Assembly (NCBI GenBank): GCA_964520505.1
Contig: CAZFQP010000002.1
Coordinates: forward strand, 26,804-90,803
Direction of reading: 5' to 3'
Source of the DNA: an uncultured Candidatus Saccharibacteria bacterium
GTDB lineage: Bacteria; Patescibacteriota; Doudnabacteria; UBA920
DNA length: 64,000 nt
Positions 4,550 to 58,864 of this stretch are shown one piece after another (positions within the stretch are counted from its first letter, which is position 1; each line of letters opens with the position of its first letter). The notes beneath the pieces were generated by a model. The model made no database searches. It was not told where the DNA came from and worked only from the letters and a program-made list of their open reading frames with translations. Position numbers and translations under genes: made by a program.

Positions 4550-4643
4550 TTTATAATCCTAATGTTCCGAATTAATATCCTAATGTTCCGAATGGGCCCA
4601 TTTGGGGCATTTGGATTGCAGTTTTGGATTATTCGGATTATGT

Positions 4644-7217: not shown

Positions 7218-7249
7218 AGGCCGCCGTGATGTGAAAATCACGGCGGCCT
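7218..7249 (-). terminator. GC-rich hairpin (13-bp stem) terminator downstream of the 7270-7605 CDS
   Basis: AGGCCGCCGTGAT/ATCACGGCGGCCT stem followed by a T-rich tract on the minus strand. Confidence 0.55.
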
Positions 7250-7269: not shown

Positions 7270-7605
7270 CTAGGCAAACTGGGAAGCCAAGTTGTTCCGT
7301 ATGGGCGCATTGCCACAAACATTGTCTTCCAGCTTGGAAATATCTGCCTTAACCTGATGCAGGCGACCCAAAATCGGGCCAAGAGAAGTGGGCGCAGCAG
7401 GCGCCGGCTGACCGACACAGACAGGTTCAGCACTTTTCACTTCGCCAATCAGCGTTTCCAACTCCTTGGCCGATCGCCAAAAAGTTTCTCTCAGGTCACT
7501 ATCAGATTTTCCGCCCTTTAGAGCGTCCTTGTAATTTTGCGCCGCCTGATTAAACGTTCTTAGCGGCGCAGATACCTTTGCCATTACAGCATCAAACTCT
7601 GACAT
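7270..7605 (-). CDS. hypothetical protein (GC-rich cassette A)
   Basis: 111 aa; AAGGAGG 4 nt upstream of the ATG; local GC well above the genome background; own terminator. Confidence 0.55.
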   Translation of the reverse strand: MSEFDAVMAKVSAPLRTFNQAAQNYKDALKGGKSDSDLRETFWRSAKELETLIGEVKSAEPVCVGQPAPAAPTSLGPILGRLHQVKADISKLEDNVCGNAPIRNNLASQFA

Positions 7606-7892
7606 ACTGCCTCCTTAAAACTATGTACTCACATTTTTGGCTATAAAACTTTACAGACAAAAATCTGCTTACAAAAAAACCTCCCAAATAGGAGGTTTAG
7701 AAAACGGAAAAATTAAAAAACAAGTTATTGGGAATGGATTGGCGGTGTTTGAATAGGGCTTTTTGGTTCATTGAAATTAATTAACTTTCTTGGTTATTTT
7801 ACTCCCGGGAAAAAACTTCGTCAAACGCGGTTGTCCACAAAAGAAAGCCGCCCCGAATCCGAAATCGGGGCGGCAAATGTTGAGCGTGGTTG

Positions 7893-8840
7893 TCAGCCTT
7901 TTATGACCCATTCTAAGAGCGCCATACGGACAAAGAGCCCGTTTTCCGCTTGGCGAAAATAAGCCGCGCGCGGGTCGTCGTCCACCTCAGTCTTGATTTC
8001 GCCAACCCGGGGGAACGGATGCATTAGAATGGCCCACTTGGGCAGCCATATCATTTGCTCGAGGCCTATGATGTATTGTGCCGCGACATCAGCCGGAACC
8101 GATTCCTCGCCCTCCACCTTCCGTTCATTTTGAACGCGTGTCCAATAAACGACATGTGCTCGCCGAAATGACCCTTCCACATCACCACTTTCCTCAAAGG
8201 TCGTACCCTTCTCACGCAAGTGTTCTTTGATGTCCTCACCCACGCGAAGCTGGGGAGGAGACAGAAAAATGATGTGGTTGCCGGGATACTTACTGAGCAA
8301 GTAAGCCAGCGACCGGACGGTTCGACCACGCTTAAGGTCACCGCCAATGACCACAGTAAGGCCATGCAGTTGGCCAAGTTCCATCTTGATAGTGTAAGTA
8401 TCCAGCACGGCTTGGGTTGGATGCTGGCCACGACCGTCGCCGCCGTTGATAATAGGAACGAGGCTAACCAAAGACGCCCGTTCAGCAGCGCCGTCCAACT
8501 TATGCCTCATCACAATTACGTCCGGAGCGTAGGAAGAAATGATGCGAATAGTGTCTTCCAGAGTTTCACCTTTGATGGTGGAAGAAAATTCGCCGGCATT
8601 TTCACTGCCCTCGACAGCCATTCCTAAAACCTGAGCGGCTTGTACAAAGGATATGCGGGTCCTGGTTGAAGGCTCCCAGAACATATAGATCATTCTGAGA
8701 CCCTTAAGAACATCCAGGAGATCAAGCCTGTTGCCGTTTTTGACAATTCCCCGAAACTCTTCGGCTCGCTTAAAAATGGTTGCGAGGAGATCCGGAGTGA
8801 ACATTTGAGACTTTACCACGTGTCTCATAAAATCCTCCAT
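7893..8840 (-). CDS. pyrB: aspartate carbamoyltransferase catalytic subunit
   Basis: 'STRTR', 'HPTQ' and C-terminal 'HPFPRVGEI..EVD' (the ATCase HPLPRVDEI motif); probable true start is the Met at ~8828 preceded by GGAGGA; GC-rich; own hairpin terminator at 7848-7875. Confidence 0.75.
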   Translation of the reverse strand: MEDFMRHVVKSQMFTPDLLATIFKRAEEFRGIVKNGNRLDLLDVLKGLRMIYMFWEPSTRTRISFVQAAQVLGMAVEGSENAGEFSSTIKGETLEDTIRIISSYAPDVIVMRHKLDGAAERASLVSLVPIINGGDGRGQHPTQAVLDTYTIKMELGQLHGLTVVIGGDLKRGRTVRSLAYLLSKYPGNHIIFLSPPQLRVGEDIKEHLREKGTTFEESGDVEGSFRRAHVVYWTRVQNERKVEGEESVPADVAAQYIIGLEQMIWLPKWAILMHPFPRVGEIKTEVDDDPRAAYFRQAENGLFVRMALLEWVIKG

Positions 8841-10396: not shown

Positions 10397-11122
10397 TTAA
10401 TTCTGGTCAATTAGCAAATCCGGTCTTCTCTTCTTTGTCCGTTTAACAGCTTCTTCTTTTCTCCATTCTTCAATATTTTTATGGTGTCCGGTTAATAAAA
10501 CCTTTGGCACTTTGTATTTTTTGTTTCCCAATTTCTTATTTCTAATTTCTAATGTTTCTGGTTTAGTATACTGCGGGTACTCCAGCATTGCTTCTGAAAA
10601 AGATTCTTTGTCTACCGATTCATCTTTTCCCAAAATACCCGGCCTCAGCCGTATTACCGCCTCAGCTATCACCAAAGCCGGCAATTCCCCGCCCATAAGC
10701 ACATAATCGCCAATGCTAATTTCTTCGTCTACAAATTGCCTGACCCGTTCGTCAAAACCTTCATACCTGCCGCAGACAAAAATTAGATTATCATACTTGG
10801 AAAGCCTTTGAGCTTCTTTTTGAGTAAACGGCTTCCCTTGCGGAGTTAACAAGATTATCCTTAATCCTTTATCCTTTATCCTTGAGGAGGCTGTTTTTAT
10901 GGCTTTGCACAAGACGTCGGCTCTCAACACCATTCCCACTCCCCCGCCATAAGGCCGGCCGTCGACAATCTGCCGCTCGGTCAAACCAAAACTTCTTAAA
11001 TTAACAGCTTTAAGATCTAATAGTTTAAGTTTAATCGCACGTTTAACAATACCAAAACTGTCCACAAAATTTTCAATAAATTGCGGAAAGAGAGTGATAA
11101 TTTTTATATTTAACTTTTTCAT
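10397..11122 (-). CDS. trmD: tRNA (guanine37-N1)-methyltransferase
   Basis: 241 aa; SPOUT/TrmD motifs ('GRPYGGGVGMVL'); in-frame heptamer-repeat inserts (ATCCTTT x3; AATTTCT array). Confidence 0.85.
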   Translation of the reverse strand: MKKLNIKIITLFPQFIENFVDSFGIVKRAIKLKLLDLKAVNLRSFGLTERQIVDGRPYGGGVGMVLRADVLCKAIKTASSRIKDKGLRIILLTPQGKPFTQKEAQRLSKYDNLIFVCGRYEGFDERVRQFVDEEISIGDYVLMGGELPALVIAEAVIRLRPGILGKDESVDKESFSEAMLEYPQYTKPETLEIRNKKLGNKKYKVPKVLLTGHHKNIEEWRKEEAVKRTKKRRPDLLIDQN

Positions 11123-11130
11123 ATAATTTT

Positions 11131-11229
11131 CTACTAAATACTAAAAAAACTAAACTACTAAAACTTTCAATTCACGCTTTCGTACTTTCGCCTGCCTGCC
11201 GGTAGGCAAGTTCTTTTCGTATTTAGTAG
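11131..11229. repeat. AT-rich TIR element, copy 3, carrying an internal GC-rich palindromic insert (GCCTGCCGGTAGGC)
   Basis: same TIRs (one mismatch); ~28-bp extra GC-rich segment also seen inverted at 51379-51396. Confidence 0.65.
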
Positions 11230-12411: not shown

Positions 12412-12690
12412 AGGAGATATTAGATTTAAAATATAAAATTTACGACTTTATAACTGCACTTACAAAATTTCATAGCAGCAAACTCTGAAATTTTGACAAT
12501 GCATATTTACTGAGCGTGGAAATATTCTAACATTTTTCGCGGATTTGGTCAATATGACCGTATGGCCACGGATACGCCGATAAAAACAGATGTCACGGAT
12601 AAAAAACCTAAGATGGTGCCCATCTAAATAAAATTAAATGCGCCGCCCTGTCTAAAAGACTGGGCGGCGCACGAGGCCGGCGATGGCCAG

Positions 12691-13077
12691 CTATTGCTTG
12701 AACACCACCGAGCGCTTGGGCTCGGCGCCAAACTGGTAGACCGCAACTTTGCCCGCGCAAGGAGTCTCCTTGCCGGCGGCAAGTGCCGCCAACCGATCAA
12801 GAACAACCGCGCCCTTCTTGCAACATTCCTCTGATGAATAACAGCATTTGTCCGGCTCATTCGAGCAGCCAGACGCGCAGCAGCATTCCCATGGCACCGG
12901 CCATGGGCGAGGCGGCATGGCCATCAGTTGCAGAGTCGGCGCAGTCGCCGGGACGGTCGCGGTCGCAGTGGCATTGGCCGGCGCAGACGCGGTCGCCGAG
13001 CCGGGGTCAGCAGCGAAAGCCGCAGCAGTGATCAAAAAAGCAAACATCAACGTCATCAAAAAAATCTTTTTCGTCAT
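12691..13077 (-). CDS. secreted Cys-rich small protein (GC-rich cassette B)
   Basis: The ~129-aa reading starts at the ATG at 13077 (GAGGAAAG RBS). It has a signal peptide (MTKKIFLMTLMFAFLITAAAFA) followed by an Ala/Thr/Pro-rich stretch. The C-terminal part is Cys-rich (CCCASGCSNEPDKCCYSSEECC). A 9-bp GC hairpin terminator lies at 12641-12671. The ORF-track start at 13158 is probably an upstream over-extension. Confidence 0.5.
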   Translation of the reverse strand: MTKKIFLMTLMFAFLITAAAFAADPGSATASAPANATATATVPATAPTLQLMAMPPRPWPVPWECCCASGCSNEPDKCCYSSEECCKKGAVVLDRLAALAAGKETPCAGKVAVYQFGAEPKRSVVFKQ

Positions 13078-16100: not shown

Positions 16101-16357
16101 AATGTAATAAATTGGTTTGTATATACTTGTGTATATACAAAGGTATATACATCAACGGCTTGTTTAACTATCTATAAATTTGAATTAATACCCCCTGGCG
16201 AAAAAACGCCAAAAGCTAGTAATCAGTCTAGCATATATGTCAAGATTGGGCAATGGACTAAGACCCAAAATACCCCGCTCAAAAAAATAACGACATCAAA
16301 CAATGAAAATTCCGGCAGGCGTGAGGCGCCTGCCGGAATTGCGGTTGTTCATTTGGC

Positions 16358-16594
16358 TTACCCTCTGGCTCTTTCGGCCAAGGGCAGGGCGGGTTCTTCC
16401 ACATCGGGCAAGCCCTCGGCGAACCGGACAACAGCCGGCCAAACAATCACGCCGGCCGACCACCAAAGCGCCACTTTGCCGAACACAAAAGCTACTACTG
16501 TCCAGGCACCGACAAAAGCCAGCAACGCAACAGCCACAACGACCCAGTTAGGCACAACATACTGTTCCGGCCCAACCAAAATGATTATCTCCAT
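16358..16594 (-). CDS. small hydrophobic protein (GC-rich cassette C, gene 2)
   Basis: ~78 aa from the ATG at ~16594; AGGAGGA overlaps the upstream gene's TAG; 2 TM helices; hairpin terminator at 16308-16339. Confidence 0.45.
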   Translation of the reverse strand: MEIIILVGPEQYVVPNWVVVAVALLAFVGAWTVVAFVFGKVALWWSAGVIVWPAVVRFAEGLPDVEEPALPLAERARG

Positions 16595-16602
16595 TCTTCC
16601 TC

Positions 16603-16818
16603 CTACTTCTCTCCGGCCGCAACGGCAGCCGGAACCTCTTGCCCCTCCGGATTGACGCCGGACAGGTTTTGGAGAAACATGACACAAGCAAGAAGAATAA
16701 GCGCGACTAGCGTACAAACTCCGACGCAAACTGCGGTTGATTCTCCCTGCCAAAAACCTCTCGACCCATTATACTTTTCCAAAGTGCCTCCTACTTTGCC
16801 GAAGGGCTTCCCCACCAA
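16603..16818 (-). CDS. small hydrophobic protein (GC-rich cassette C, gene 1)
   Basis: 59-71 aa depending on the TTG start (a TTG at ~16782 has GGAGG 5 nt upstream); one TM helix; translationally coupled to the downstream gene. Confidence 0.4.
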   Translation of the reverse strand: MVGKPFGKVGGTLEKYNGSRGFWQGESTAVCVGVCTLVALILLACVMFLQNLSGVNPEGQEVPAAVAAGEK

Positions 16819-19264: not shown

Positions 19265-19349
19265 TCCAAATCACGAATTTTATCCGAATGCCCCGAAAAC
19301 TTTTTGGGAACATTCGGATATTGATTTAAAGCATTAGGATTATACTGCA

Positions 19350-24892: not shown

Positions 24893-25237
24893 ATGTCGGT
24901 AAACGCGGCAAGTATTCTTTTAGTTGTCTGCTCGCACGAAGCCGAAGCACGCTTCCTAGCCACAACCTGGAGCAAAACCGCATCCTGGTGCGGGATCATG
25001 TTGGCTCACTGGCCTGCGGAAATCCACTTCCAAAGAATGATTCTGGCACTAAGCTACGGCGGGAATATAAAACCTTCGGAAGTACCGGCCTGGGTCGAGG
25101 AAGTATCCTACTTTCCCGGCTGCGCGGATTTTTCAGCGGTGCGCAACAGATTATGGCCAAAAACCTTCCAAAATGGCAACGCCCACCCGGAGGTTAAATT
25201 TACGAATTTGTTTGTGAGAAAGGAGGCTGACAAATGA
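24893..25237 (+). CDS. hypothetical protein (GC-rich cassette D, gene 1)
   Basis: 114 aa; AAGGAGG 5 nt upstream; its stop overlaps the next start (ATGA). Confidence 0.5.
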   Translation: MSVNAASILLVVCSHEAEARFLATTWSKTASWCGIMLAHWPAEIHFQRMILALSYGGNIKPSEVPAWVEEVSYFPGCADFSAVRNRLWPKTFQNGNAHPEVKFTNLFVRKEADK

Positions 25238-25548
25238 CGGCTATACTGGTCTTCTCAAACGCGAAGGACATGTGGCTGGCATACCGCAGCCTGACAGGTC
25301 TTAAGCTCTATCGGATTGAGACAAATCTTCCGCTTTCGGACCGCGACGTCCGTTGGCAACTGCGCGACAAACGCTCCCTAATTTTTATTGGGATAGACGG
25401 CGCAATTCCGTCAATCATCAAACACAATCTTATGGGGGCAAAGGTGATGGTTGTTAACGGAACCGTAACCCAAAGTTTCGTCAAACTGCAAACCCCGCCC
25501 GCCAAACCGACATTGTTTCTGGTTCAAACGGCCGCCAAGGCCGCCTAA
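25234..25548 (+). CDS. hypothetical protein (GC-rich cassette D, gene 2)
   Basis: 104 aa; AAGGAGG upstream; followed by a GGCCGCC hairpin terminator at 25563-25600. Confidence 0.5.
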   Translation: MTAILVFSNAKDMWLAYRSLTGLKLYRIETNLPLSDRDVRWQLRDKRSLIFIGIDGAIPSIIKHNLMGAKVMVVNGTVTQSFVKLQTPPAKPTLFLVQTAAKAA

Positions 25549-25562
25549 GCCGGAAAACAAGC

Positions 25563-25600
25563 AAAAGGCCGCCCGACTCATTGTCCGGCGGCCTTTTCAT
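25563..25600 (+). terminator. rho-independent terminator of cassette D
   Basis: AAAAGGCCGCC...GGCGGCCTTTTC. Confidence 0.65.
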
Positions 25601-26980: not shown

Positions 26981-27095
26981 AGTATTTTTAATTACCTTAC
27001 TAACTCATTTTACTTTTTTCAAACAGCTAAGTCAAAAAGAAGCGCGCCCACTAACCCGAAGGTTTGCGGACGCGCTATGCTCTGGAAAATTCCTC

Positions 27096-27497
27096 TTATT
27101 GGATTTTAGCCAAATCCGACAGTAGGCCATAGTAACCGCAGTACGACTTCTGACCGCTCGCCGTAATAACTTCGAACAAAACAGCCAGAACACCTACCCG
27201 CTCCTTGGGGCGGATGTCCACGAGCTTCCTGCAATCCCAAACACGAATCGTAAGAGAGCGGTGCCGGGAACAATACCGCCGGCCATAACGGCGCCAGTGG
27301 CTTGCCAGTTTGTCATATGGCATCTTTTTCAGCCTAGAACCTGCCGGTCGCAGTGCGCGGGTGGTAGAGTAAAAGTCACTCACCCCAGCATGCTTCAGCA
27401 GGGCGCACAGATACTCAACCTGTGCCGGCTCGTTGCAAGAATCAATGTGTTTTAACCACACCTTCCTGCCGCATGGATCTTTCAGAAATAGGGCCAT
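27096..27497 (-). CDS. hypothetical Cys/His-containing protein (GC-rich cassette E, gene 2)
   Basis: 133 aa; ATG with GGGGGTGG upstream. Confidence 0.45.
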   Translation of the reverse strand: MALFLKDPCGRKVWLKHIDSCNEPAQVEYLCALLKHAGVSDFYSTTRALRPAGSRLKKMPYDKLASHWRRYGRRYCSRHRSLTIRVWDCRKLVDIRPKERVGVLAVLFEVITASGQKSYCGYYGLLSDLAKIQ

Positions 27498-27674
27498 TGG
27501 CCCACCCCCTACTTGGATTTCGCAAAGTCAGCTTGCTGAATCTGCGATTGCCAGAGTATAGCAAAAATAAAAGAAAAAGAAAAGAGGCGGCCGAGCAGGA
27601 TGCTCGGCCGCCATGCACGCCAACAAATGGCGGCGCTTGCGGGAAAAACAAAAACTATCAAAGCAGAACCAGCT

Positions 27675-28004
27675 CTACTGCACGTCATTAAGAGCGTTTG
27701 TCGCAGCCTGCCAGGCTTTGTCCAAAGCAACCTGCTGTCGCCGGACGAAACTCGGAAGGCCGCCAACTGGCTTTGCGGCATAGGCCTGTGCATCGCGGAA
27801 CTGCTTAACAGTCCCACAATAAACAACACCGCGAAGTGCCACTTCGACGTAGCGGAAGGGCTTGGTGCTATCAAAGCCCTGCCGACCTTCCAGGACAGAA
27901 AGCAACTCAACTATCAAGCTCCTGTCCTTAATGGACGTAATCTGCTTGCGGCTTCCGAAAGCCACCATTGACCCTGGGGTCAATTCGCTTCTGATGTTTT
28001 TCAA
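27675..28004 (-). CDS. hypothetical protein (GC-rich cassette E, gene 1)
   Basis: 109 aa; TTG start with AGGAGG 5 nt upstream; 12-bp GC hairpin plus T-run terminator at ~27590-27640 (minus strand). Confidence 0.45.
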   Translation of the reverse strand: MKNIRSELTPGSMVAFGSRKQITSIKDRSLIVELLSVLEGRQGFDSTKPFRYVEVALRGVVYCGTVKQFRDAQAYAAKPVGGLPSFVRRQQVALDKAWQAATNALNDVQ

Positions 28005-28225
28005 AATGACCTCCTACAGGACATCTGCAACCAGAACGAGATTTGGTTGCCGAATTTAATATCTATATTATGCCTATTTAATTCTTTTGTCAAAACCCCT
28101 GCCCCCCTTGGCCAAACTTATGAGATACTGATATACTGATGCGTGCAGATGCTATATAAAATACTGATTGCAAATATCCGTATTATCAGTATCATCTGTA
28201 TTAATCCGTATATTAGTATCATATT

Positions 28226-29311: not shown

Positions 29312-29315
29312 TTTT

Positions 29316-29354
29316 CCCTCTCCCTGGACGGGAGAGGGATTAAGGGTGAGGGTG
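29316..29354. repeat. GC-rich hairpin repeat (left terminal inverted repeat of the DUF559 cassette; also the ychF terminator hairpin)
   Basis: CCCTCTCCC-TGGAC-GGGAGAGGG then ...GGGTGAGGGTG; reverse complement ~80% identical to 29696-29733. Confidence 0.6.
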
Positions 29355-29356
29355 AT

Positions 29357-29695
29357 ATGCAAAATAAAACACTCATTCCAATCGCTAGAAAACTTCGTAA
29401 ACAAAAAACCCCTGAAGAAGCTAATCTTTGGCAACTTTTGCGTTCCCGACGATTTCTAGGTTATAAATTTAGACGCCAATTTCCAGTTGATAAATATGTA
29501 GCAGATTTTGTCTGCCTCTCAAAAAGATTAATTATTGAATTGGATGGCGGACAACATAATAAAAACCCTAACGATGCAACTCGAGACGAATATCTACAAA
29601 AACAAGGATTTAGAATCCTGCGAATTTGGAATAATGATTTAAATATAAATAAAGAATCTGTCTTAGATAAAATTTTTTATACTTTGAACGAATAG
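29357..29695 (+). CDS. DUF559 (Vsr/MTES-like endonuclease fold) domain protein
   Basis: 112 aa; 'ANLWQLLRSRRFLGYKFRRQFPV..YVADFVC...IIELDGGQH' typical DUF559; AT-rich relative to its flanks. Confidence 0.75.
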   Translation: MQNKTLIPIARKLRKQKTPEEANLWQLLRSRRFLGYKFRRQFPVDKYVADFVCLSKRLIIELDGGQHNKNPNDATRDEYLQKQGFRILRIWNNDLNINKESVLDKIFYTLNE

Positions 29696-29733
29696 CACCC
29701 TCATCCCTGCCCTTCTCCCGTCCAGGGAGAAGG
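29696..29733. repeat. GC-rich hairpin repeat (right terminal inverted repeat of the DUF559 cassette)
   Basis: CACCCTCATCC-CTGC-CCTTCTCCC-GTCCA-GGGAGAAGG; shares the CACCCTCATCC 11-mer with 56720 upstream of tsaD. Confidence 0.6.
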
Positions 29734-29807
29734 ATGGGGCAAAAAACAAAAGACTCTTCCGAACATGGGAAGAGTCTCTTTTGAAAGCGCGCGAAACATT
29801 GCGCGGA

Positions 29808-30182
29808 TTATTGCGGGGTGCAGGGCACTGTTATGAATGTTGATACCACCGCGGGCCGGCCGCCAATTAAAGTTGGCCGATACCTCCAGGTGGTTAGCAC
29901 CAAGCGTTTGGCCTGAACAACCAACTGGCGAAACCGCGACTCGTTGTAGTTAGCATCCAAAGACCGCTGTTTAACTTCTTTAACAGCCACCACCTGGCCG
30001 TCTTCGCCAATATTAGCTCGCAAAATAACGCGAGCATTAGTGTCCGGACAAGCCGGAGAGCGAAGAATTCTCTGGTCTTTGGGAACCAGCAATCTCCCCT
30101 CTTCTTCCGGTCCGGAAACAAAACGCTGGCAAAAAGCCGCCGGCGCAAAAACCAACAGCAACAAAACAAACGCAACCTGCAT
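29808..30182 (-). CDS. secreted TonB C-terminal-domain-like protein (GC-rich cassette F)
   Basis: 124 aa; signal peptide; '..ARVILRANIGEDGQVVAVKEVK..SLD....WRYRPTLIGGRPAVVSTFITVP' resembles the TonB_C fold signature; GGAGG 6 nt upstream of the ATG. Confidence 0.45.
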   Translation of the reverse strand: MQVAFVLLLLVFAPAAFCQRFVSGPEEEGRLLVPKDQRILRSPACPDTNARVILRANIGEDGQVVAVKEVKQRSLDANYNESRFRQLVVQAKRLVLTTWRYRPTLIGGRPAVVSTFITVPCTPQ

Positions 30183-30463
30183 CTAATCCTCCACTCGAAA
30201 TTGGGGTATAAATTATTTTAGCATAAAAAAATGACCCCTCTTTTGAGGGGCATATAAAATTGATATTATTTAGTATATTATAGCACTTTTTAAGCTTTTT
30301 GTCAATCCTAGACAAAACCCCTTATAATTGCTATACTTTAACCACAATTTACACATTCATAGATTAATCAGCTTAATGCCAATCTGCGTTATCTGTGCCG
30401 TCTGTGCATTTGTAAACAATAATAATTCATATTCCCCTACGGGGGATAGAAAGGACACTTTCT

Positions 30464-30976: not shown

Positions 30977-31094
30977 TTAAATATAATCCGAATACTGCGA
31001 ATACTGGAAATCCGAATTATCCGAAATCTGCAGCACTCTTTCGGGGCATTAGGATAGCTATTCGGGGCATTAGGATTATACAATTAGTAAATAT

Positions 31095-31952: not shown

Positions 31953-32049
31953 AAATTAAAATTGAAAAATCAAAATGTAAAATTACAGATTCCGCCTCCG
32001 GCGGAAACCTATATTTTGCACTTTGATATTTAAACTTTACAATTTCACT
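31953..32049 (+). repeat. ~95-bp terminator-plus-promoter module, copy 2 (between rpsR and efp)
   Basis: hairpin TTCCGCCTCCGGCGGAA plus T-run, then TTGATATTTAAACTTTA. Confidence 0.6.
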
Positions 32050-36595: not shown

Positions 36596-37219
36596 CTACG
36601 CGCAAATAAATTTTGGTGTTAGAATTTTATTTTTTGAATGGCGGGCCGGGGTTTTAGTCCGGCCCTTTTTGAGCTGTTGTTCCTGTGGCGGCTGAGGATC
36701 GGGATTATTTTCCGGAGGAATTGTAACGAGTATCGCCCCGGAAGTTCCTTCAACTAAGACAGGACCTCCATCTTCGTTGACACCGCAAACGTTTTCTACC
36801 CCGATGGCCAAAGCCTGGTTAAAGTCTGCCGGCAAGGCAATCTCTATCCTGGCCACCAGTCCGTCGTCCGGAACCCCGAAATATAGGCAAGTGATTGACG
36901 TCCCTTCCCCTTCAGCCTTGTTGCAAACAAAAGCCGGGGTTCCAATATTCTCAGGGTTTAAAATCAATTTCCACTCTTGCCCTTCGGCAAGCTCGGGAAG
37001 GTTTAACGTCCACTGAAGGCCAAAGACCTCTTCCTGTTCTTGCCCTTGCAATCGCAACTCAATACTGTTTACTTCGCCAGGAGTTCCGATTTTGGACTCA
37101 ACTACCAGTCTAGGCTGAGCGGAGGAAACCGCTGCAACAAAAACAAAAACTATCGAACAGAGTCTCATAAATCCCCCTTTAATTATGCCGGTTTCCCGCT
37201 TGTTTAAGCGGATAACCAC
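36596..37219 (-). CDS. secreted cohesin-like domain protein with basic Pro-rich tail
   Basis: 207 aa by ORF track; probable start at the internal Met (~37168, GGGGGA upstream) giving a signal peptide; '..VFGLQWTLNLP...ITCLYFG...SGAILVTI' pattern homologous to the other two cohesin-like domains. Confidence 0.5.
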   Translation of the reverse strand: MVIRLNKRETGIIKGGFMRLCSIVFVFVAAVSSAQPRLVVESKIGTPGEVNSIELRLQGQEQEEVFGLQWTLNLPELAEGQEWKLILNPENIGTPAFVCNKAEGEGTSITCLYFGVPDDGLVARIEIALPADFNQALAIGVENVCGVNEDGGPVLVEGTSGAILVTIPPENNPDPQPPQEQQLKKGRTKTPARHSKNKILTPKFICA

Positions 37220-37293
37220 GCTTGAACATAACCTATTATATCATAAAAATTGCCGCCGACGCTAGAACGCGCCGACGGCAAAACCGGGAAACT

Positions 37294-37785
37294 TTAAGGG
37301 CTGGGAATGGCAGCCGTGGCTTCGTTGCTGTAAACACTCTCCCCTGCCGGAGAAATTGCGGTTACCACGTAATAATACGTGGCCCCGGAAGTCACATTGC
37401 GGTCAATCCAACTCAAGGCCGGGTTGGTCGTTGAAGACTGGATAAGCGTGTATGGACCGCCTGCGGCTGTTCCCCGATACACCTTGTAGCCGGTCACACC
37501 CGAAGATGAACTCGCCACCCAGCTCAGTGTAACATAGTGATTGCCGGTTATGCAGCCTTTCCCAAGAACCGCATTCACAACCCTTTGGACCACGACAATG
37601 TTGCAAACATTGCCGTAAACCTGGGCGGTGCAAGCAGCTTTTCCCAACGCCATATTGACCGCGAGCTGAATATCAACCGCGTTAACGGTTCCGTCTGAAT
37701 TCAGATCACAGGCGTTTAGTTGCTGGCCACATACGACCGCGGGCAACAAAAAACAGAAAACAGTGATGAGGATTGTTTTTCTCAT
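37294..37785 (-). CDS. secreted dockerin + fibronectin type III domain protein
   Basis: 163 aa; signal peptide; 'CDLNSDGTVNAVDIQLAVNMAL' dockerin-type Ca-binding repeat; FN3-like 'VTLSWVASSSSGVTGYKVYRG...YYYVVTAISPAGESVYS'. Confidence 0.55.
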   Translation of the reverse strand: MRKTILITVFCFLLPAVVCGQQLNACDLNSDGTVNAVDIQLAVNMALGKAACTAQVYGNVCNIVVVQRVVNAVLGKGCITGNHYVTLSWVASSSSGVTGYKVYRGTAAGGPYTLIQSSTTNPALSWIDRNVTSGATYYYVVTAISPAGESVYSNEATAAIPSP

Positions 37786-40544: not shown

Positions 40545-40775
40545 TTAAGACCGCATAATTTCATCGATAATGTCACGTGTTGGGACAGAGTACTTCCTGC
40601 CAAACCAGCCTGGTGCCCTGTCATCTTGTGCCGTCCCGTTCATACGGCTGACCAATGATGGCCTAACAGACTTTTTGGCAGGGTTGTGGCGCTCAGTAGA
40701 GACAGCCTGTTCTGGGGGAGGCGGCGACACATGAGTACGTGGCTCCCGCCCATTGTTGTTACGACGTGGTCCCAT
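40545..40775 (-). CDS. small basic Pro-rich hypothetical protein (GC-rich cassette G)
   Basis: 76 aa; AAGGAGG immediately upstream of the ATG; embedded in a ~450-bp GC-rich, hairpin-dense segment. Confidence 0.4.
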   Translation of the reverse strand: MGPRRNNNGREPRTHVSPPPPEQAVSTERHNPAKKSVRPSLVSRMNGTAQDDRAPGWFGRKYSVPTRDIIDEIMRS

Positions 40776-42937: not shown

Positions 42938-42978
42938 ATTTTCGCTATCTACCTCTAATTCTCTAACAGACTATCTCA

Positions 42979-43392
42979 CTAACTTTCTAATTCTCTAACT
43001 CTCTGTATATCAAACTTAATCTGTTTTTTTAACTCTGCCTCATTTTTAAACTTCTTAAATGGCCGAAGGTATTTTATCAAATGCAAAGTAATTTTTTTGC
43101 CGTACAAATTTCCTTTAAAGCCAATTAGGTGTGCTTCTAGTTTTGGCAATCCTTCTTTATCTATAGGCCCTATAATTATCCCCGCGGGATAATTTCTGAT
43201 TTCCAATTTCTGATTTCCAATTTCTGCCATTCCTGCATAAATACCTAATTTTATATTCTGTTTCCTGCGGGAATAGCTTCTCCTGTCCAAATTAGCAGTC
43301 GGAAAACCTAAAAGTCTGCCATACTGCTGGCCTTTAACAACTAGCCCGCTGATGGTTACTGTTTTTCCCTTTTTAGAAGATTTTTGAATCAT
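42979..43392 (-). CDS. riboflavin kinase (monofunctional flavokinase domain)
   Basis: 137 aa; 'TISGLVVKGQQYGRLLGFPTANL' flavokinase motif; contains an in-frame heptamer array (ATTTCTG/ATTTCCA x5); C-terminal 10 aa from the same repeat as the EamA gene. Confidence 0.65.
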   Translation of the reverse strand: MIQKSSKKGKTVTISGLVVKGQQYGRLLGFPTANLDRRSYSRRKQNIKLGIYAGMAEIGNQKLEIRNYPAGIIIGPIDKEGLPKLEAHLIGFKGNLYGKKITLHLIKYLRPFKKFKNEAELKKQIKFDIQRVRELES

Positions 43393-44526: not shown

Positions 44527-44555
44527 TTGACAAATTACACAAATAAGCCTATACT
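44527..44555 (+). promoter_or_regulatory. sigma70 promoter TTGACA-N17-TATACT with ~85-nt structured leader
   Basis: hexamers read directly; leader contains an 8-bp stem CCGATTGG/CCAATCGG. Confidence 0.55.
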
Positions 44556-44645: not shown

Positions 44646-44915
44646 ATGGATTCCTTGCTGTTCCTAGGCACCACGGTGGTGGTCCTGGTTTTATGGAGCC
44701 TGCAAAGCAGTTCTAAACTGCACCAGGCTTTAGGCAAACATGCCGACAAAACCAAACTGCTGCCTCATGCCTTTAGCATGCTAATAATTAGCGCTCAGAT
44801 TTCCGAGCTGCTAAAAGTCATAGAGCATGCTTCAGTGACCAATGTGGTCGGCGCGTTCTTCTTGCTCGCCATCATTGCGGCCACCAGACCGGGAACACAA
44901 GGAGAACTCCACTAA
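44646..44915 (+). CDS. small membrane protein (2 TM), hypothetical
   Basis: 89 aa; RBS-like AAAGGAA upstream; hairpin terminator at ~44945-44990. Confidence 0.45.
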   Translation: MDSLLFLGTTVVVLVLWSLQSSSKLHQALGKHADKTKLLPHAFSMLIISAQISELLKVIEHASVTNVVGAFFLLAIIAATRPGTQGELH

Positions 44916-44999
44916 AATAGGGTTCCCGGATGCAGTATTCGCAAAGAGCCCGTCCCGACAAAATCGGAACGGGCTCTTTCATTTGTTTTCCTGCTACGG

Positions 45000-48522: not shown

Positions 48523-48585
48523 TTTATTAAAATAGGCGGCTCTCCAAAAGGATGAGCCGCCTATGCCTTGCCTGGGTTGAACAGC

Positions 48586-48855
48586 CTACTGGGGTGACAG
48601 TTGTCTTTCCCAAAAATTAACAGTCGTAGAAAGCAATTCCACTGCTAACGGATCACCGCTATCCAGAATCCTCTCAACTCTTTTAACGAGCTGTGAGATT
48701 TCTTTCTTTGTAAGAGGCTCCAGTGCTTTTTCCCCAACCGACGCCACAGCCTCGCTAATTGCCTGGCCTGCAAAATCTTTTATCGACACACCTTGCTCTG
48801 CGCAGTGGGTCTTGAGTTTACGATGCAAGCCTTCACCCAACACTACTGATTTCAT
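48586..48855 (-). CDS. small hypothetical protein, possible DNA-binding
   Basis: ~89 aa from the internal Met preceded by AAGGAGAAAGAGG (the ORF-track start at 48876 lacks an SD); helical. Confidence 0.4.
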   Translation of the reverse strand: MKSVVLGEGLHRKLKTHCAEQGVSIKDFAGQAISEAVASVGEKALEPLTKKEISQLVKRVERILDSGDPLAVELLSTTVNFWERQLSPQ

Positions 48856-50281: not shown

Positions 50282-50491
50282 AAATAATTTGATGATTTAA
50301 AGATTGTAGATTTTAAAATTTAAAATACAACAAAATTGAATCAACTTTTGATATTTTACCATAAATGGTTGGTTTTATCAAGGGCGCGATTTAGCAGAAA
50401 CAATGGATTATAATAGATTATTTTTTACAAAAAAGATGGGGCCTAAGGCGCCCCATCTAAATGGCCATTTCGGCCAAGCCGGATTTTGTGC

Positions 50492-53522: not shown

Positions 53523-53638
53523 TTTAGGTTGTAGGTTGTAGGTTGTAGGTTTTTAGCAATCAATCATTAATGCCAAAATTGAACAAAAATATTTTTAAAA
53601 AATCATATCAATCATGTTCAATTTTTTAAATTTTGTCA

Positions 53639-56122: not shown

Positions 56123-56638
56123 ATGGGGAAGACAATTCGCCTTTCATTTTTTGTTATTTTTGCCGCATATTTTATTTCCTGCGCCGCCTCGCCGGCCGAA
56201 TGGCATTTTATAGACGGGGTTAATTTAATTTTTCACGAAGCCGGCCATTGGCTGTTTTGGCCTATGGGAGAATTTTTACATATTCTTGGAGGCAGTTTAA
56301 ATCAAGTTTTAATTCCCCTGCTTATTTCGTTTTACTTTTTTTGGAAAAAACAGCCTGTCTCCGCTTTCGCGGTTTTGCTCTGGGCAGGCCAAAGCCTAAT
56401 AAATATTTCTGTTTATGCAGCCGATGCCACAAAAATGCAATTACCTCTGTTAGGCGGCGATAGTTCCACTCACGACTGGAACTGGTTGTTAATTTACTTG
56501 GGGCAATTAAGGCATACCCCACAAATAGCACAAGTAATAACTGTCTGCGGCTGGCTGGTTCTATTGGCTGGACTTTTTGGGGGCATATATTTTATACTTA
56601 TTGAATCTAAAAAAGTAGACTATGGACAAACTAATTAA
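56123..56638 (+). CDS. membrane protein with HExxH motif (putative zincin-like membrane peptidase, DUF3267-like)
   Basis: 171 aa; 4-5 TM; 'IFHEAGHWLFWP' HExxH within the first TM region. Confidence 0.4.
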   Translation: MGKTIRLSFFVIFAAYFISCAASPAEWHFIDGVNLIFHEAGHWLFWPMGEFLHILGGSLNQVLIPLLISFYFFWKKQPVSAFAVLLWAGQSLINISVYAADATKMQLPLLGGDSSTHDWNWLLIYLGQLRHTPQIAQVITVCGWLVLLAGLFGGIYFILIESKKVDYGQTN

Positions 56639-56765
56639 TCATAAAAAAAATAAAGTAATTCTCGCCAAGCCCTCTCTTCCCCTCGCTCCTGCTCGGGGCA
56701 CTCTCTCCCGCAAAACACCCTCATCCGGCCTACGGCCACCTTCCCCCAAAGGGGGGAAGGAAAAA

Positions 56766-58276: not shown

Positions 58277-58570
58277 ATGACTGTATTGCGTTTTAATAGT
58301 TTGGCGCATGCTGATGCCTTCGCCACTAGATATCTGGTCGGCCATGATTGGATGACTTTCTATGGCGAAAGCCAGGTATGTATTGTCTGCGAAGATACAG
58401 ACATCGATCACGAACGCCACACCATTGCCGGCCTACTCGAGGAAACCCGAGTTCCGTGGACCAGAGAAAGAATCAGCCATGATCTGACCAATGACAGCTG
58501 GGACAACTTTTTTGCCCGAGCCATTGTGAACTCGGCCATGGGCGAGGTTGTCTTCTCGCATATCAGCTAG
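58277..58570 (+). CDS. hypothetical protein (GC-rich cassette J, gene 1)
   Basis: 97 aa; AAGGAGG 5 nt upstream of the ATG; N-terminus loosely resembles cassette D gene 2. Confidence 0.45.
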   Translation: MTVLRFNSLAHADAFATRYLVGHDWMTFYGESQVCIVCEDTDIDHERHTIAGLLEETRVPWTRERISHDLTNDSWDNFFARAIVNSAMGEVVFSHIS

Positions 58571-58579
58571 GGGCAACCC

Positions 58580-58864
58580 ATGGAAAGTTTTAACACTCTG
58601 GCTTTTATATTCGGCAGCTCGCCCCTACCGGCCACACCGGACGGGGCGACCTGCCTGGTCATTGGCAATGTTATTCTGGTTTGCGGATGGGACGAAGAGG
58701 TTGTCCCTCCTAGCTGGCCAGACCCTGTAAGAACCAAGCTCTGTCTGTCCGCCGTTGCCAACTTTCTCATACGCTTCGGCACAGATAAATGCTGGGACTG
58801 CATCGTGGACAATTACGGCAGCGATGCCGTGGTCTTACCGACCGCCCAGGCCGGGTGCTCCTAA
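58580..58864 (+). CDS. hypothetical Cys-containing protein (GC-rich cassette J, gene 2)
   Basis: 94 aa; AGGGG 7 nt upstream; 9 nt after gene 1. Confidence 0.45.
   Translation: MESFNTLAFIFGSSPLPATPDGATCLVIGNVILVCGWDEEVVPPSWPDPVRTKLCLSAVANFLIRFGTDKCWDCIVDNYGSDAVVLPTAQAGCS

Follow-up and report, generated by a model that had tools for sequence, protein, structure and literature searches.

SD-led, individually terminated small genes as a candidate flexible gene pool in a Patescibacteria chromosome with a mostly SD-less core

Introduction

Along the chromosome of an uncultured Patescibacteria (CPR) bacterium, short GC-rich segments such as the one at 7270..7605 carry small genes behind canonical Shine-Dalgarno (SD) sequences, whereas most of the genes around them lack a strong SD. 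What are these segments, how did they come to lie among conserved operons, and why do they keep an initiation signal that their neighbours do without? We addressed these questions in a window of 64,000 nucleotides, the whole stretch of DNA analysed here. The original prediction had regarded the segments as self-contained modules, either acquired from a high-GC, SD-using donor, possibly a host, or forming a distinct class of mobile cassettes. To our knowledge, hardly any work has addressed translation initiation in CPR/Patescibacteria. The single survey known to us on the subject reported that the anti-SD motif is absent in some Parcubacteria (PMC9297842).

Two classes of genes in the window

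The SD of each gene was scored as the duplex energy of the 20 nt upstream of the start against CACCUCCUUU, with -8 kcal/mol or lower taken as a strong SD. A strong SD was found at 17 of the 66 window genes, or 19 after two start corrections, with the motifs AAGGAGG, AGGAGG, GGAGG or G-rich variants such as GGGGG in the 17 genes. The majority, 49 of 66 (47 after the corrections), are SD-less, and most of the 49 scored above -4 kcal/mol. Of 65 upstream regions, 8 contain the motif GGAGG, where 0.98 would be expected (p = 6e-6). Every island named in the original prediction contains an SD-led ORF, in the cases of pyrB and 36596 after start shifts, and SDs are indeed rarer upstream of the other genes, the exception among core genes being tsaD, which has one at its true start. 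Several start positions were found to be misplaced, public calls included. A low SD fraction was also seen in related and other CPR loci. The TTG starts described as several are used by just 2 SD genes.

The GC content of the window is 43.2%, with a standard deviation of 5.1% and 95th and 99th percentiles of 51.5% and 54.6% over 400-nt windows, and the twelve listed islands range from 47.5 to 59.7%, in agreement with the predicted contrast to the background. However, GC per gene varies continuously from 32% to 60%, and therefore the islands are moderately GC-rich rather than high-GC. Comparison of the SD class with the remaining genes revealed a higher GC (.509 vs.433, p = 1.4e-6) and GC3 (.539 vs.446, p = 1e-5), shorter proteins (125 vs 323 aa) and a far greater share of genes without a Pfam match (15/17 vs 10/49, Fisher p = 1e-6). 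The start regions of core genes are AT-rich, unstructured and devoid of an SD; the start-region folding energy is -10.9 kcal/mol in the SD class and -4.9 kcal/mol in the rest, though some of this difference is inherent in the classification, since an SD adds G to the region. Statistical differences between the two classes were found in SD, GC1-3, length, Pfam status, folding energy of the start region and terminators. Exceptions occur on both sides, as SD-led genes such as DUF559 (32% GC) can lack the GC excess, and ssb and khpA are among the GC-rich genes without an SD. In five related contigs with independent database gene calls, SD genes lie +0.091 in GC above their locus and the rest -0.004 (p = 4.6e-6), the pyrB entries in this comparison not being phylogenetically independent.

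The codon usage of the SD class, with G-ending codons in excess, differs from that of both the bulk genes and the ribosomal-protein genes, so that the codon-usage and GC3 check proposed with the original prediction gives the expected contrast. Proteins of the SD class contain more Gly/Ala/Arg/Pro, Cys and Trp than core proteins. High-expression codon bias was considered as the source of the high GC3 and rejected, because ribosomal-protein genes favour C-ending codons and the SD class G-ending ones.

A terminator was defined as a hairpin with dG of -12 or lower followed by a T-run within 110 nt downstream of the gene. By such pattern matches, a strong terminator follows 15 of the 17 SD genes and 11 of the 49 others, with mean dG values of -19.6 and -6.2, respectively (p = 3e-6), which supports the description of the units as self-contained. 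The hairpins differ in sequence in every unit. Several units also have a predicted sigma-70-like promoter and a 5' leader hairpin, both recognised as patterns. The units are scattered over 50 kb in the gaps between conserved core operons (Table 1), and three of them are coupled pairs (24893/25234, 16603/16358 and 58277/58580), one more than originally counted. A search for non-coding RNA in the GC-rich islands with Rfam at gathering thresholds and ARAGORN found none, the only hits being tRNA-Leu and tRNA-Glu.

Table 1. Features of the focal unit, pyrB and the other SD-led units (window coordinates; all promoters, leader hairpins and terminators are predicted)
Feature	Position	Strand	Description
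Focal gene	7270..7605	(-)	ORF, 111-aa predicted helical protein, 50.9% GC
Focal SD	7610..7616	(-)	AAGGAGG, 4 nt before ATG; duplex -11.1 kcal/mol
Focal intrinsic terminator (predicted)	7218..7249	(-)	13-bp stem, 9 G-C pairs, dG -25.6
Focal promoter (predicted)	7796..7824	(-)	TTGACG-17-TAAAAT, sigma-70-like; directly downstream of pyrB terminator; leader begins here
Candidate leader peptide uORF	7697..7771	(-)	24 codons (MNQKALFKHRQSIPNNLFFNFSVF); stop codon adjoins leader hairpin
Leader hairpin and T7 run	7677..7698	(-)	AAACCTCC-TATT-TGGGAGGTTT; 55 nt upstream of SD
pyrB (aspartate carbamoyltransferase)	7893..8828	(-)	Pfam match; 51.8% GC
pyrB SD	8834-8838	(-)	GGAGG, 5-nt spacer
pyrB own terminator (predicted)	7847-7874	(-)	hairpin pattern
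128-aa secreted Cys-rich protein	12691..13077	(-)	59.7% GC; SD GTGAGGAAAGA; terminator 12638-12672
Coupled pair, small membrane proteins	16358..16782	(-)	AGGAGG before each; terminator 16308-16340
First gene of this pair	16603-16782	(-)	59 aa, TTG start
Second gene of this pair	16358-16594	(-)	78 aa
Overlapping pair (ATGA)	24893..25548	(+)	114 aa + 104 aa; AAGGAGG each; terminator 25565-25595
133-aa protein	27096..27497	(-)	G-rich SD (GGGGGTGGG); 53% GC; terminator 27041-27076
109-aa protein	27675..28004	(-)	TTG start; AGGAGG; promoter 28065-28093 and terminator 27586-27612 (predicted)
124-aa secreted protein	29808..30182	(-)	GGAGG; consensus promoter 30277-30305; leader hairpin 30234-30251; terminator 29748-29780
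190-aa secreted protein	36596..37168	(-)	start moved to signal-peptide Met behind AAAGGGGG
163-aa secreted protein	37294..37785	(-)	weak dockerin/fn3 matches; G-rich SD; 52% GC; terminator 37250-37281
76-aa basic protein	40545..40775	(-)	behind TAAGGAGG; 54% GC; weak terminator
89-aa membrane protein	44646..44915	(+)	GGAGGG; promoter 44527-44555; terminator 44943-44979
89-aa protein, candidate ribbon-helix-helix (by eye)	48586..48855	(-)	AAGGAG; terminator 48533-48563
220-aa protein, N-terminal membrane helix	50492..51154	(-)	GGGGGA SD; terminator 50434-50458
Pair	58277..58864	(+)	97 aa (AAGGAGG) + 94 aa; SD-led unit

The units are real genes. Nine of ten unit ORFs were called independently in public assemblies, and four units could be compared usefully between strains. 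Three of these have a dN/dS of 0.14-0.27, including 0.27 for each gene of the 24893/25234 pair against L176; the value for 58580 is 0.69, on 8 changes only. A mis-registered comparison of trpS with L176 was left out of the analysis. Searches of the unit proteins against Pfam, PHROGs and PADLOC revealed no function, and the 24893..25548 pair in particular matched none of the three. No toxin-antitoxin or defence domain was found in the two-gene units by Pfam and PADLOC, remote homology being possible. The structural model of the 29808 protein (pLDDT ~66) gave weak but consistent matches to the TonB C-terminal domain (E >= 0.03).

The focal unit and pyrB

The focal gene is under purifying selection, with a dN/dS of 0.14 against the strain variant L167 and a dS equal to that of the neighbouring pyrB. 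Its protein has no Pfam, PHROG or PADLOC match, and AlphaFold modelled it as a helical bundle (pLDDT 66) whose structural matches are non-specific helical bundles. Divergent orthologues occupy the same slot between pyrB and sodA in L169 and L174 (Smith-Waterman shuffle z = 12 and 10, respectively). BLASTP reported no alignment between the focal and L169 proteins; the latter is assigned as the orthologue because of the z of 12 together with the conserved leader DNA. The focal SD is kept in L167, L169 and L174, and the orthologues in L169 and L174 also retain the GC excess and the leader.

The leader itself is conserved in its layout. The predicted promoter is found in L174 and L167, with a TTGACA-type equivalent in L169, and the 24-codon length and stop position of the uORF are the same in L167, L174 and L169 though its sequence diverges. 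From the sequence we infer that the uORF is translated. The adjoining hairpin, conserved in L169 and L174, is a candidate attenuator or 5' stabiliser. MFE and centroid folds of the leader contained the terminator and a second downstream hairpin only, with no alternative antiterminator pairing; a ribosome-occlusion mechanism would not need an antiterminator. It is just as likely that the uORF and hairpin represent a tiny gene of their own or a stabiliser of the 5' end.

The start of pyrB was corrected to 8828, giving a protein of 311 aa in agreement with the public gene call. Upstream of six pyrB orthologues, GGAGG is the only invariant block. This invariance across species amid diverging surroundings argues that the ribosome of the lineage very probably still carries a working anti-SD, the 3' end of the 16S rRNA lying outside the window. 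The GC excess of pyrB is about +0.10 in four tabulated orthologues (L169, L172, L173 and L174) and similar in L175, and it stays roughly constant across genome GC values of 0.42-0.50 at 78-84% amino acid identity, a divergence at which synonymous sites are expected to be saturated. The SD and GC excess retained in the pyrB and focal orthologues point to a persistent property and not to a fading donor signature.

Variation among relatives

Differences were found between relatives in the gaps between core operons. The pyrB-sodA slot holds 0, 1 or 4 genes, and the trpS-glmM, glmM-ychF and ychF-rpsF slots contain non-homologous units or none in relatives of 68-89% YchF identity. Slots are empty or otherwise filled in L087, L089, L090, L172, L173 and L175; for example, the 29808 unit is absent from the ychF-rpsF slot in L087, L089 and L090. 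Most units have no detectable orthologue in the relatives. Tests of positional orthology at trpS-glmM and glmM-ychF and of paralogy among units yielded no pair with z > 6 except the focal gene with its L169/L174 counterparts and one AT-rich gene common to L087 and L089.

Even between near-identical strains a unit can be exchanged. The first gene of the 58277 pair is replaced in such a strain by a 54%-identical allele, and its dS of 1.45 compared with 0.04-0.20 in the flanks shows, as judged from these values, a cassette-sized recombinational allele replacement. At the level of sequence comparison, long residence is evident for pyrB and the focal gene only, and the other units compared between strains are resident across close strains.

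Origin of the units

The metagenomic source of the contig and the abrupt shifts in composition might suggest that chimeric joining or contaminant DNA produced the GC-rich segments. However, several independent samples yielded contigs with the focal protein and its pyrB junction, the junctions of other units likewise recur in independent assemblies, and related species have the orthologous arrangement. The same junctions in independent assemblies refute an artefact, the chance of which is negligible. The mobile cassette class of the original prediction is not supported. The uniform layout of SD, small ORF and GC-rich hairpin, the placement between core operons and the variable occupancy of the slots would suit one integron-like, MITE-like or similar family with shared ends or a dedicated recombinase, but no direct or inverted repeats or ends are common to the units, their proteins are not paralogous, their hairpins all differ, and no integrase or transposase is present among the Pfam-annotated window genes. 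The repeats in the window lie in the AT-rich leaders of core genes and within surface-protein genes. Unlike integron cassettes, moreover, most of the units have their own promoter-like sites, and the units lack attC-type shared repeats and are dispersed instead of forming tandem arrays. In the absence of shared repeats, ends or protein homology, the units are not a mobile cassette family, and we regard such an origin as very unlikely.

More weight is due to a recent horizontal transfer in which the donor, for instance a host bacterium, was GC-rich and SD-using and its composition and ribosome-binding sites were retained. As in a horizontally acquired islet, the GC content and codon usage of the units are atypical, with G-ending codons in excess and proteins enriched in Gly/Ala/Arg/Pro, Cys and Trp; their presence varies among relatives; and SD-like sites are found at genes of often-mobile kinds, namely the DUF559 gene, the 23S-IVS protein gene and the RHH-like protein gene recognised by eye. 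The codon usage of the units also fits a foreign gene pool. This part of the original prediction, the atypical GC, codons and SD and the variable presence, stands, whereas the origin from a high-GC donor or host is not supported. The units reach just ~51% GC, and no distant-taxon homologues were found for the two ORFan units searched: the focal and 29808 proteins matched only near-identical close-strain copies among 5.8 billion clusters, and when the focal protein was searched exhaustively against 1.8 billion representatives, nothing further emerged but weak matches to giant-protein repeats. Among homologues of pyrB, all those with a name come from CPR bacteria, the SD and constant GC excess persist across species in pyrB and the focal orthologues, and the focal gene shares its dS with pyrB. 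As for a phage source, four cassette proteins had no relatives in IMG/VR, and there were no matches in PHROGs. Recent transfer from such a donor is thus improbable.

The units may instead be set apart by regulation. If the anti-SD were normally unavailable, as in Bacteroidia, the SD-led genes could form a regulon whose translation is confined to ribosomes, as a subpopulation or in a particular state, that expose the anti-SD. The sharp divide between the SD-less core and strongly SD-led genes, the conservation of the SD under selection, and the Bacteroidia precedent of sequestration by bS21/bS18/bS6 with an SD on rpsU (PMC7797042, PMC9976891) point in this direction. However, the SD is found at about 1/4 of the genes here compared with one or few in Flavobacterium, the window genes carry nothing on ribosome structure, and the simpler reading that the ribosome uses any SD present fits the same data, which leaves this partition rather unlikely. 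Equally unlikely is its extension to the CPR clade, with SD-independent translation of the core and a flexible, SD-led, hairpin-protected regulon, mostly for surface or host-interaction proteins, that is read only when the anti-SD is available, such as in a ribosome subpopulation resembling the bS21-lacking ribosomes of Bacteroidia. In that case, the initiation signal would partition core from accessory functions.

Proposed model

With slightly better than even confidence, we propose that the units constitute a flexible, lineage-specific pool of self-sufficient, SD-dependent transcription units within a genome whose core initiates SD-independently. The Patescibacteria (CPR) chromosome would contain two gene classes with different expression signals. 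The core class, about 3/4 of the genes, has AT-rich, weakly structured starts without an SD, which suggests SD-independent initiation. The second class would consist mostly of small, fast-evolving secreted, membrane or unknown proteins together with a small number of enzymes, pyrB among them. Each member would be a self-sufficient unit, with a canonical SD placed 4-9 nt before the start and coding GC about 8 points higher, and most units would probably terminate at a strong GC-rich intrinsic hairpin. Via homologous recombination between related genomes, units would be gained, lost and swapped in the inter-operon gaps. The slot variation documents gains and losses, and one allele swap shows recombination, from which we infer the general route. 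Some units appear to be long-term residents that have kept their SD and GC excess. The SD and hairpins would make a unit expressible wherever it is inserted and would plausibly offset its structured, GC-richer start. The weakest step concerns the stable GC excess, mainly in G-ending codons, for which a persistent force is more likely than a donor relic. A GC bias associated with recombination could be such a force, and so could selection acting on the structure and stability of the mRNA.

Within this single genome, nearly all core genes do without an SD, yet selection maintains it on a defined minority of genes, and these are also richer in GC, evolve fast, have terminators of their own and vary in presence. 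Should the pattern extend to the whole genome and clade, the SD would serve as an inexpensive marker, readable from sequence, of the flexible gene pool of these episymbionts, which is probably devoted to the surface or host interaction, and gene callers would need two start models. It would also offer a natural system for asking why an SD is required by only part of the genes, and whether the accessory genes of reduced genomes are shaped by a GC bias linked to recombination.

Comparison with known systems

E. coli pyrBI and pheA are leader-peptide transcription attenuators. Similar to these, a predicted promoter, a short ORF of conserved length with a Phe-rich codon end, and a predicted terminator that starts at the ORF stop codon all precede the SD of the focal gene, whereas in the focal leader no antiterminator was found and the candidate peptide is poorly conserved in sequence. 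Phage morons, described by Hendrix and colleagues, are genes with their own promoter and terminator, odd composition and variable presence. The units resemble them as single genes or pairs with a predicted promoter and terminator of their own and a composition unlike their neighbours, located between conserved genes and present or absent among relatives. Unlike morons, they lie in a CPR core chromosome between housekeeping operons (L19, pyrB, sodA, trpS, glmM, ychF, rpsF), with no flanking phage genes and no PHROG matches, and their translation-initiation signal also differs from the surroundings.

In most bacteria, atypical genes have a higher AT content than the core, and they are commonly interpreted as recently transferred. 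The units, in contrast, are GC-richer and have a different ribosome-binding signal, and at least two keep these traits through speciation. GeneMarkS-2 models native and 'atypical' gene classes as well as non-SD genome classes (PMC6028130), and the present genome likewise combines native with compositionally atypical genes under a dominant start signal that is not the SD.

In Bacteroidia, ribosomes are SD-blind, because bS21, bS18 and bS6 sequester the anti-SD, and the SD of rpsU is read by bS21-lacking ribosomes (PMC7797042, PMC9976891). As in Bacteroidia, the SD is absent here from most genes and strong and conserved in a minority; however, about 25% of the genes are SD-led, and these are mostly accessory ORFans and not a ribosomal autoregulatory gene. 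A subgroup of Parcubacteria has lost the anti-SD motif (Tsurumaki et al. 2022, PMC9297842), and the present genome shares with it the CPR lineage and an SD-anti-SD pairing apparently unused by most genes. In a GTDB scan, the phosphoglucomutase of the window matched Patescibacteria MAGs at no more than about 51% identity. In contrast to that subgroup, the conserved GGAGG of pyrB and the many well-spaced SDs would argue that the SD is read by the ribosome of this lineage.

Two classes of initiation signal

The genes of the window fall into two signal classes, the second of which consists of autonomous units, that is, small GC-richer genes led by a Shine-Dalgarno (SD) site. The original prediction had described such genes in a genome mostly lacking SDs, each with its own hairpin terminator. 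The islands it named have a GC content of 47.5-59.7%, against a mean of 43.2% (sd 5.1%) for 400-nt windows; gene GC is continuous, and the two groups emerge from the SD signal instead. For 17 of the 66 genes, pairing with the presumed 16S tail is ≤ -8 kcal/mol, whereas most others are above -4 kcal/mol. These genes carry AAGGAGG, AGGAGG, GGAGG or G-rich variants (e.g. GGGGG) 4-9 nt from the start, and GGAGG is enriched eight-fold upstream of starts. After three start corrections (see the table), every named island contains an SD-led ORF. Compared with the others, the SD-led genes are shorter, GC-richer at codon positions 1, 2 and 3, mostly without a Pfam match (15/17 versus 10/49) and more structured in the start region (-10.9 versus -4.9 kcal/mol). 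A strong hairpin with a T-run lies downstream of 15 of the 17, versus 11 of the 49 others. Exceptions are the DUF559 endonuclease-like gene, very AT-rich (32% GC) despite an SD-like site; ssb and khpA, GC-rich without an SD; and the core gene tsaD, whose likely true start is preceded by an SD. The original observation is thus confirmed, and the pattern is also present in relatives.

Some public calls have apparently misplaced starts (pyrB in the relative L175, 58277 in the close strain variant L178). The longest tsaD ORF has a GC-rich N-terminal extension of 48 codons; the likely true start, behind a G-rich SD, matches a 385-aa public call in contig L086, and the call in L178 retains the 433-aa long form.

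The window (43.2% GC over 64 kb) encodes nusA, rny, ymdB, sodA, pyrB, rplS, rluD, trmD, khpA, rpsP, uvrA, uvrC, secG, rnj, trpS, phosphoglucomutase, ychF, rpsF, ssb, rpsR, efp, trxB, htrA, tsaD, valS, ABC exporters and large dockerin/Ig-domain surface proteins. By phosphoglucomutase, the closest species representatives are Patescibacteria MAGs, at only ~51% identity, and the named pyrB homologues belong to Saccharimonadia and Parcubacteria. Therefore, the window is part of the chromosome of a bacterium of the candidate phyla radiation (CPR) without a close representative. Several metagenome assemblies made independently, among them an NCBI contig of 98.7 kb, encode proteins identical to those of the window, and public gene calls include 9 of 10 unit ORFs, again independently. 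The assembly is sound with respect to chimeric joins, as the unit junctions recur in assemblies of other samples. Rfam revealed no RNA gene in the GC-rich islands.

Conservation of the SD and the GC excess

Two sets of orthologues retain both the SD and the GC excess. Among the units, only pyrB has rich homology. Five relatives (78-84% aa identity) keep its context S16-khpA-trmD-rluD-L19-pyrB-sodA; in all of them pyrB GC is ~0.10 above its own locus (0.42-0.50), and GGAGG is the sole invariant block in the alignment of six pyrB upstream regions (mean identity 55%). The focal gene (7270-7605) has orthologues between pyrB and sodA in the relatives L169 and L174, both SD-led and GC-rich with a well conserved leader of ~290 nt, although the proteins are only ~25% identical (Smith-Waterman z = 12 and 10). 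This conservation of the SD upstream of orthologues argues that the ribosome of the lineage probably still reads SDs, which matters given that the anti-SD motif is missing in part of Parcubacteria (PMC9297842).

Against a strain variant (93% nt identity), the focal ORF has a dN/dS of 0.14 and a dS of 0.275, similar to the 0.313 of adjacent pyrB. The overlapping ORFs 24893 and 25234 each have a dN/dS of 0.27. These values, like the independent ORF calls, mark the units as real genes.

Upstream elements

The focal leader contains a short Phe-rich ORF and a terminator hairpin. The length and stop position of this ORF are the same in the window, the strain variant L167, L174 and L169, while its sequence drifts; no antiterminator fold was found in the leader. 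We hypothesize that the leader is an attenuator of the leader-peptide type, with the terminator being blocked by a ribosome that translates the short ORF.

Features of the window, with start corrections
Feature	Position	Strand	Remark
Promoter-like site	7824-7796	-	downstream of pyrB terminator
24-codon ORF, Phe-rich	7771-7697	-	ends exactly at hairpin stem
Terminator hairpin + T7 run	7698-7677	-	leader of focal gene
Focal SD	7616-7610	-	55 nt after leader hairpin
pyrB start	8828		corrected
36596 unit start			corrected to signal-peptide Met
Island, two coupled ORFs	16358-16818		corrected
tsaD extension	56622-56765
tsaD likely start	56766
TTCGGRRCATTAGGAT tandem units	4552-4592, 19304-19344, 31040-31080		before ymdB, solute-binding protein gene, ssb
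TTTTAGTATTTAGTAG	1867-1895, 2346-2374, 11120-11148		before three other genes
91-nt direct repeat, 86% identity	31621-31711, 31953-32043		before rpsR and efp; small GC hairpin inside
CCTACAA, three in tandem	53523-53550		directly before ABC exporter ATG
DUF559 gene	29357-29695
24-nt GC-rich inverted repeats	29315-29338, 29711-29734		bracket DUF559 gene
89-nt direct repeat, 80% identity	41528-41616, 42939-43027		3' ends of ribF and EamA transporter gene

AT-rich repeated elements (TTCGGRRCATTAGGAT, TTTTAGTATTTAGTAG) lie directly upstream of core-gene starts, and ATTAG precedes 12 of 65 starts versus 2.3 expected. These may be a shared promoter/operator or a non-SD ribosome-binding signal. In addition, valS and trxB are preceded by short tandem heptamers (TTCTTAA-like) similar to the CCTACAA array.

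Variable slots and an allele swap

Slot occupancy varies among relatives, and one allele swap was observed. Between pyrB and sodA there are four genes in L169, a single gene in the window and in L174, and no gene in L172, L173 or L175. The ychF-rpsF gap is 100-173 nt in the relatives L087 and L089; that of the window spans 1.15 kb and accommodates the DUF559 gene and the 29808 unit. Small ORFs in the trpS-glmM and glmM-ychF slots of relatives are non-homologous; they are SD-led and GC-richer in L090 and, for one, in L089, but not in L087. Between 58277-58570 and L178 5711-5992 the identity is only 54% (dS 1.45), whereas the neighbours valS, tsaD and engB have dS of 0.11-0.20 and 58580 has 0.04. 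The similarity breaks off immediately before the 58277 SD. Such a pattern identifies 58277 as a cassette-sized allele replacement by recombination.

Other small elements were also found. In L169 (11300-13000), the pyrB-sodA slot also has three small AT-rich ORFs (88, 127 and 69 aa), and nearly the same hairpin, ATGCCCATTGC...GCAATGGGCAT, recurs downstream of all three; small units of this repeat-bearing kind differ from those described above. The inverted repeats around the DUF559 gene share the core TCTCCCTGGACGGGAGA (2 copies versus 0.03 expected), and a homologue occupies the ychF-rpsF slot of L090, whereas L087 and L089 have none there; the gene with its repeats is probably a small mobile element. 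The 89-nt repeat, through which both proteins end in DIQRVRELES, brackets the EamA gene and a 23S-rRNA-IVS protein gene, suggesting that this block was inserted, duplicating the ribF 3' end.

Origin of the units

The units had been proposed to form a mobile cassette class or to derive from a high-GC, SD-using donor. The former is not supported, as we found no direct or inverted repeats common to the units, no paralogy among their proteins, and no integrase or transposase among the annotated window genes; the units are alike in architecture, not in sequence, and are not a family. As to a donor, the focal protein and 29808 matched only near-identical close-strain copies among 5.8 billion clusters. 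With the focal protein, HMMER run exhaustively over 1.8 billion representatives contributed no more than weak hits to repeats of giant proteins. The unit proteins had no matches in PHROGs or PADLOC, nor did the four that were scanned against IMG/VR. Moreover, a donor signature would fade, so the steady GC offset and SD over the divergence of the pyrB and focal orthologues indicate maintained traits. The evidence is against recent import from a high-GC donor, where testable.

G-ending codons account for most of the excess in GC3 that the SD class has. The G fraction in two-fold NNR codons is 0.50 in this class and 0.315 in other genes; in ribosomal and other highly expressed genes, which are enriched in C-ending codons instead, it is 0.287, ruling out high-expression codon bias as the source. 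The excess could come from a distinct gene pool, from selection acting on mRNA structure, or from a GC bias linked to recombination.

Proposed model and comparison with known systems

We propose, with slightly better than even confidence, a flexible set of self-sufficient units, specific to the lineage, that depend on the SD and lie within a core that does not. Core genes would initiate via unstructured AT-rich leaders, and the units would depend on SD pairing, which may also offset the stronger folding of their start regions, in line with the established dependence of SD-less genes on low structure at the start. Short mRNAs may be stabilised by the leader hairpins, the SD and the terminator hairpins in this organism, whose RNase J and RNase Y are both encoded in the window. 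The units would move among related genomes by recombination in flanking core genes. The finding points to a dual initiation regime among CPR bacteria, open to direct test.

The units resemble phage morons in architecture and distribution, but are chromosomal and without a phage link. Bacteroidia genomes, too, have few SDs and a minority of genes in which the SD is conserved (PMC7797042, PMC9976891), whereas the SD-led genes here form a large minority and are for the most part accessory. The units also fit the notion of 'atypical genes' in gene finding (PMC6028130), but are GC-richer, have a different ribosome-binding signal and are in some cases stable. They match neither integron cassettes nor recognisable toxin-antitoxin or defence pairs.
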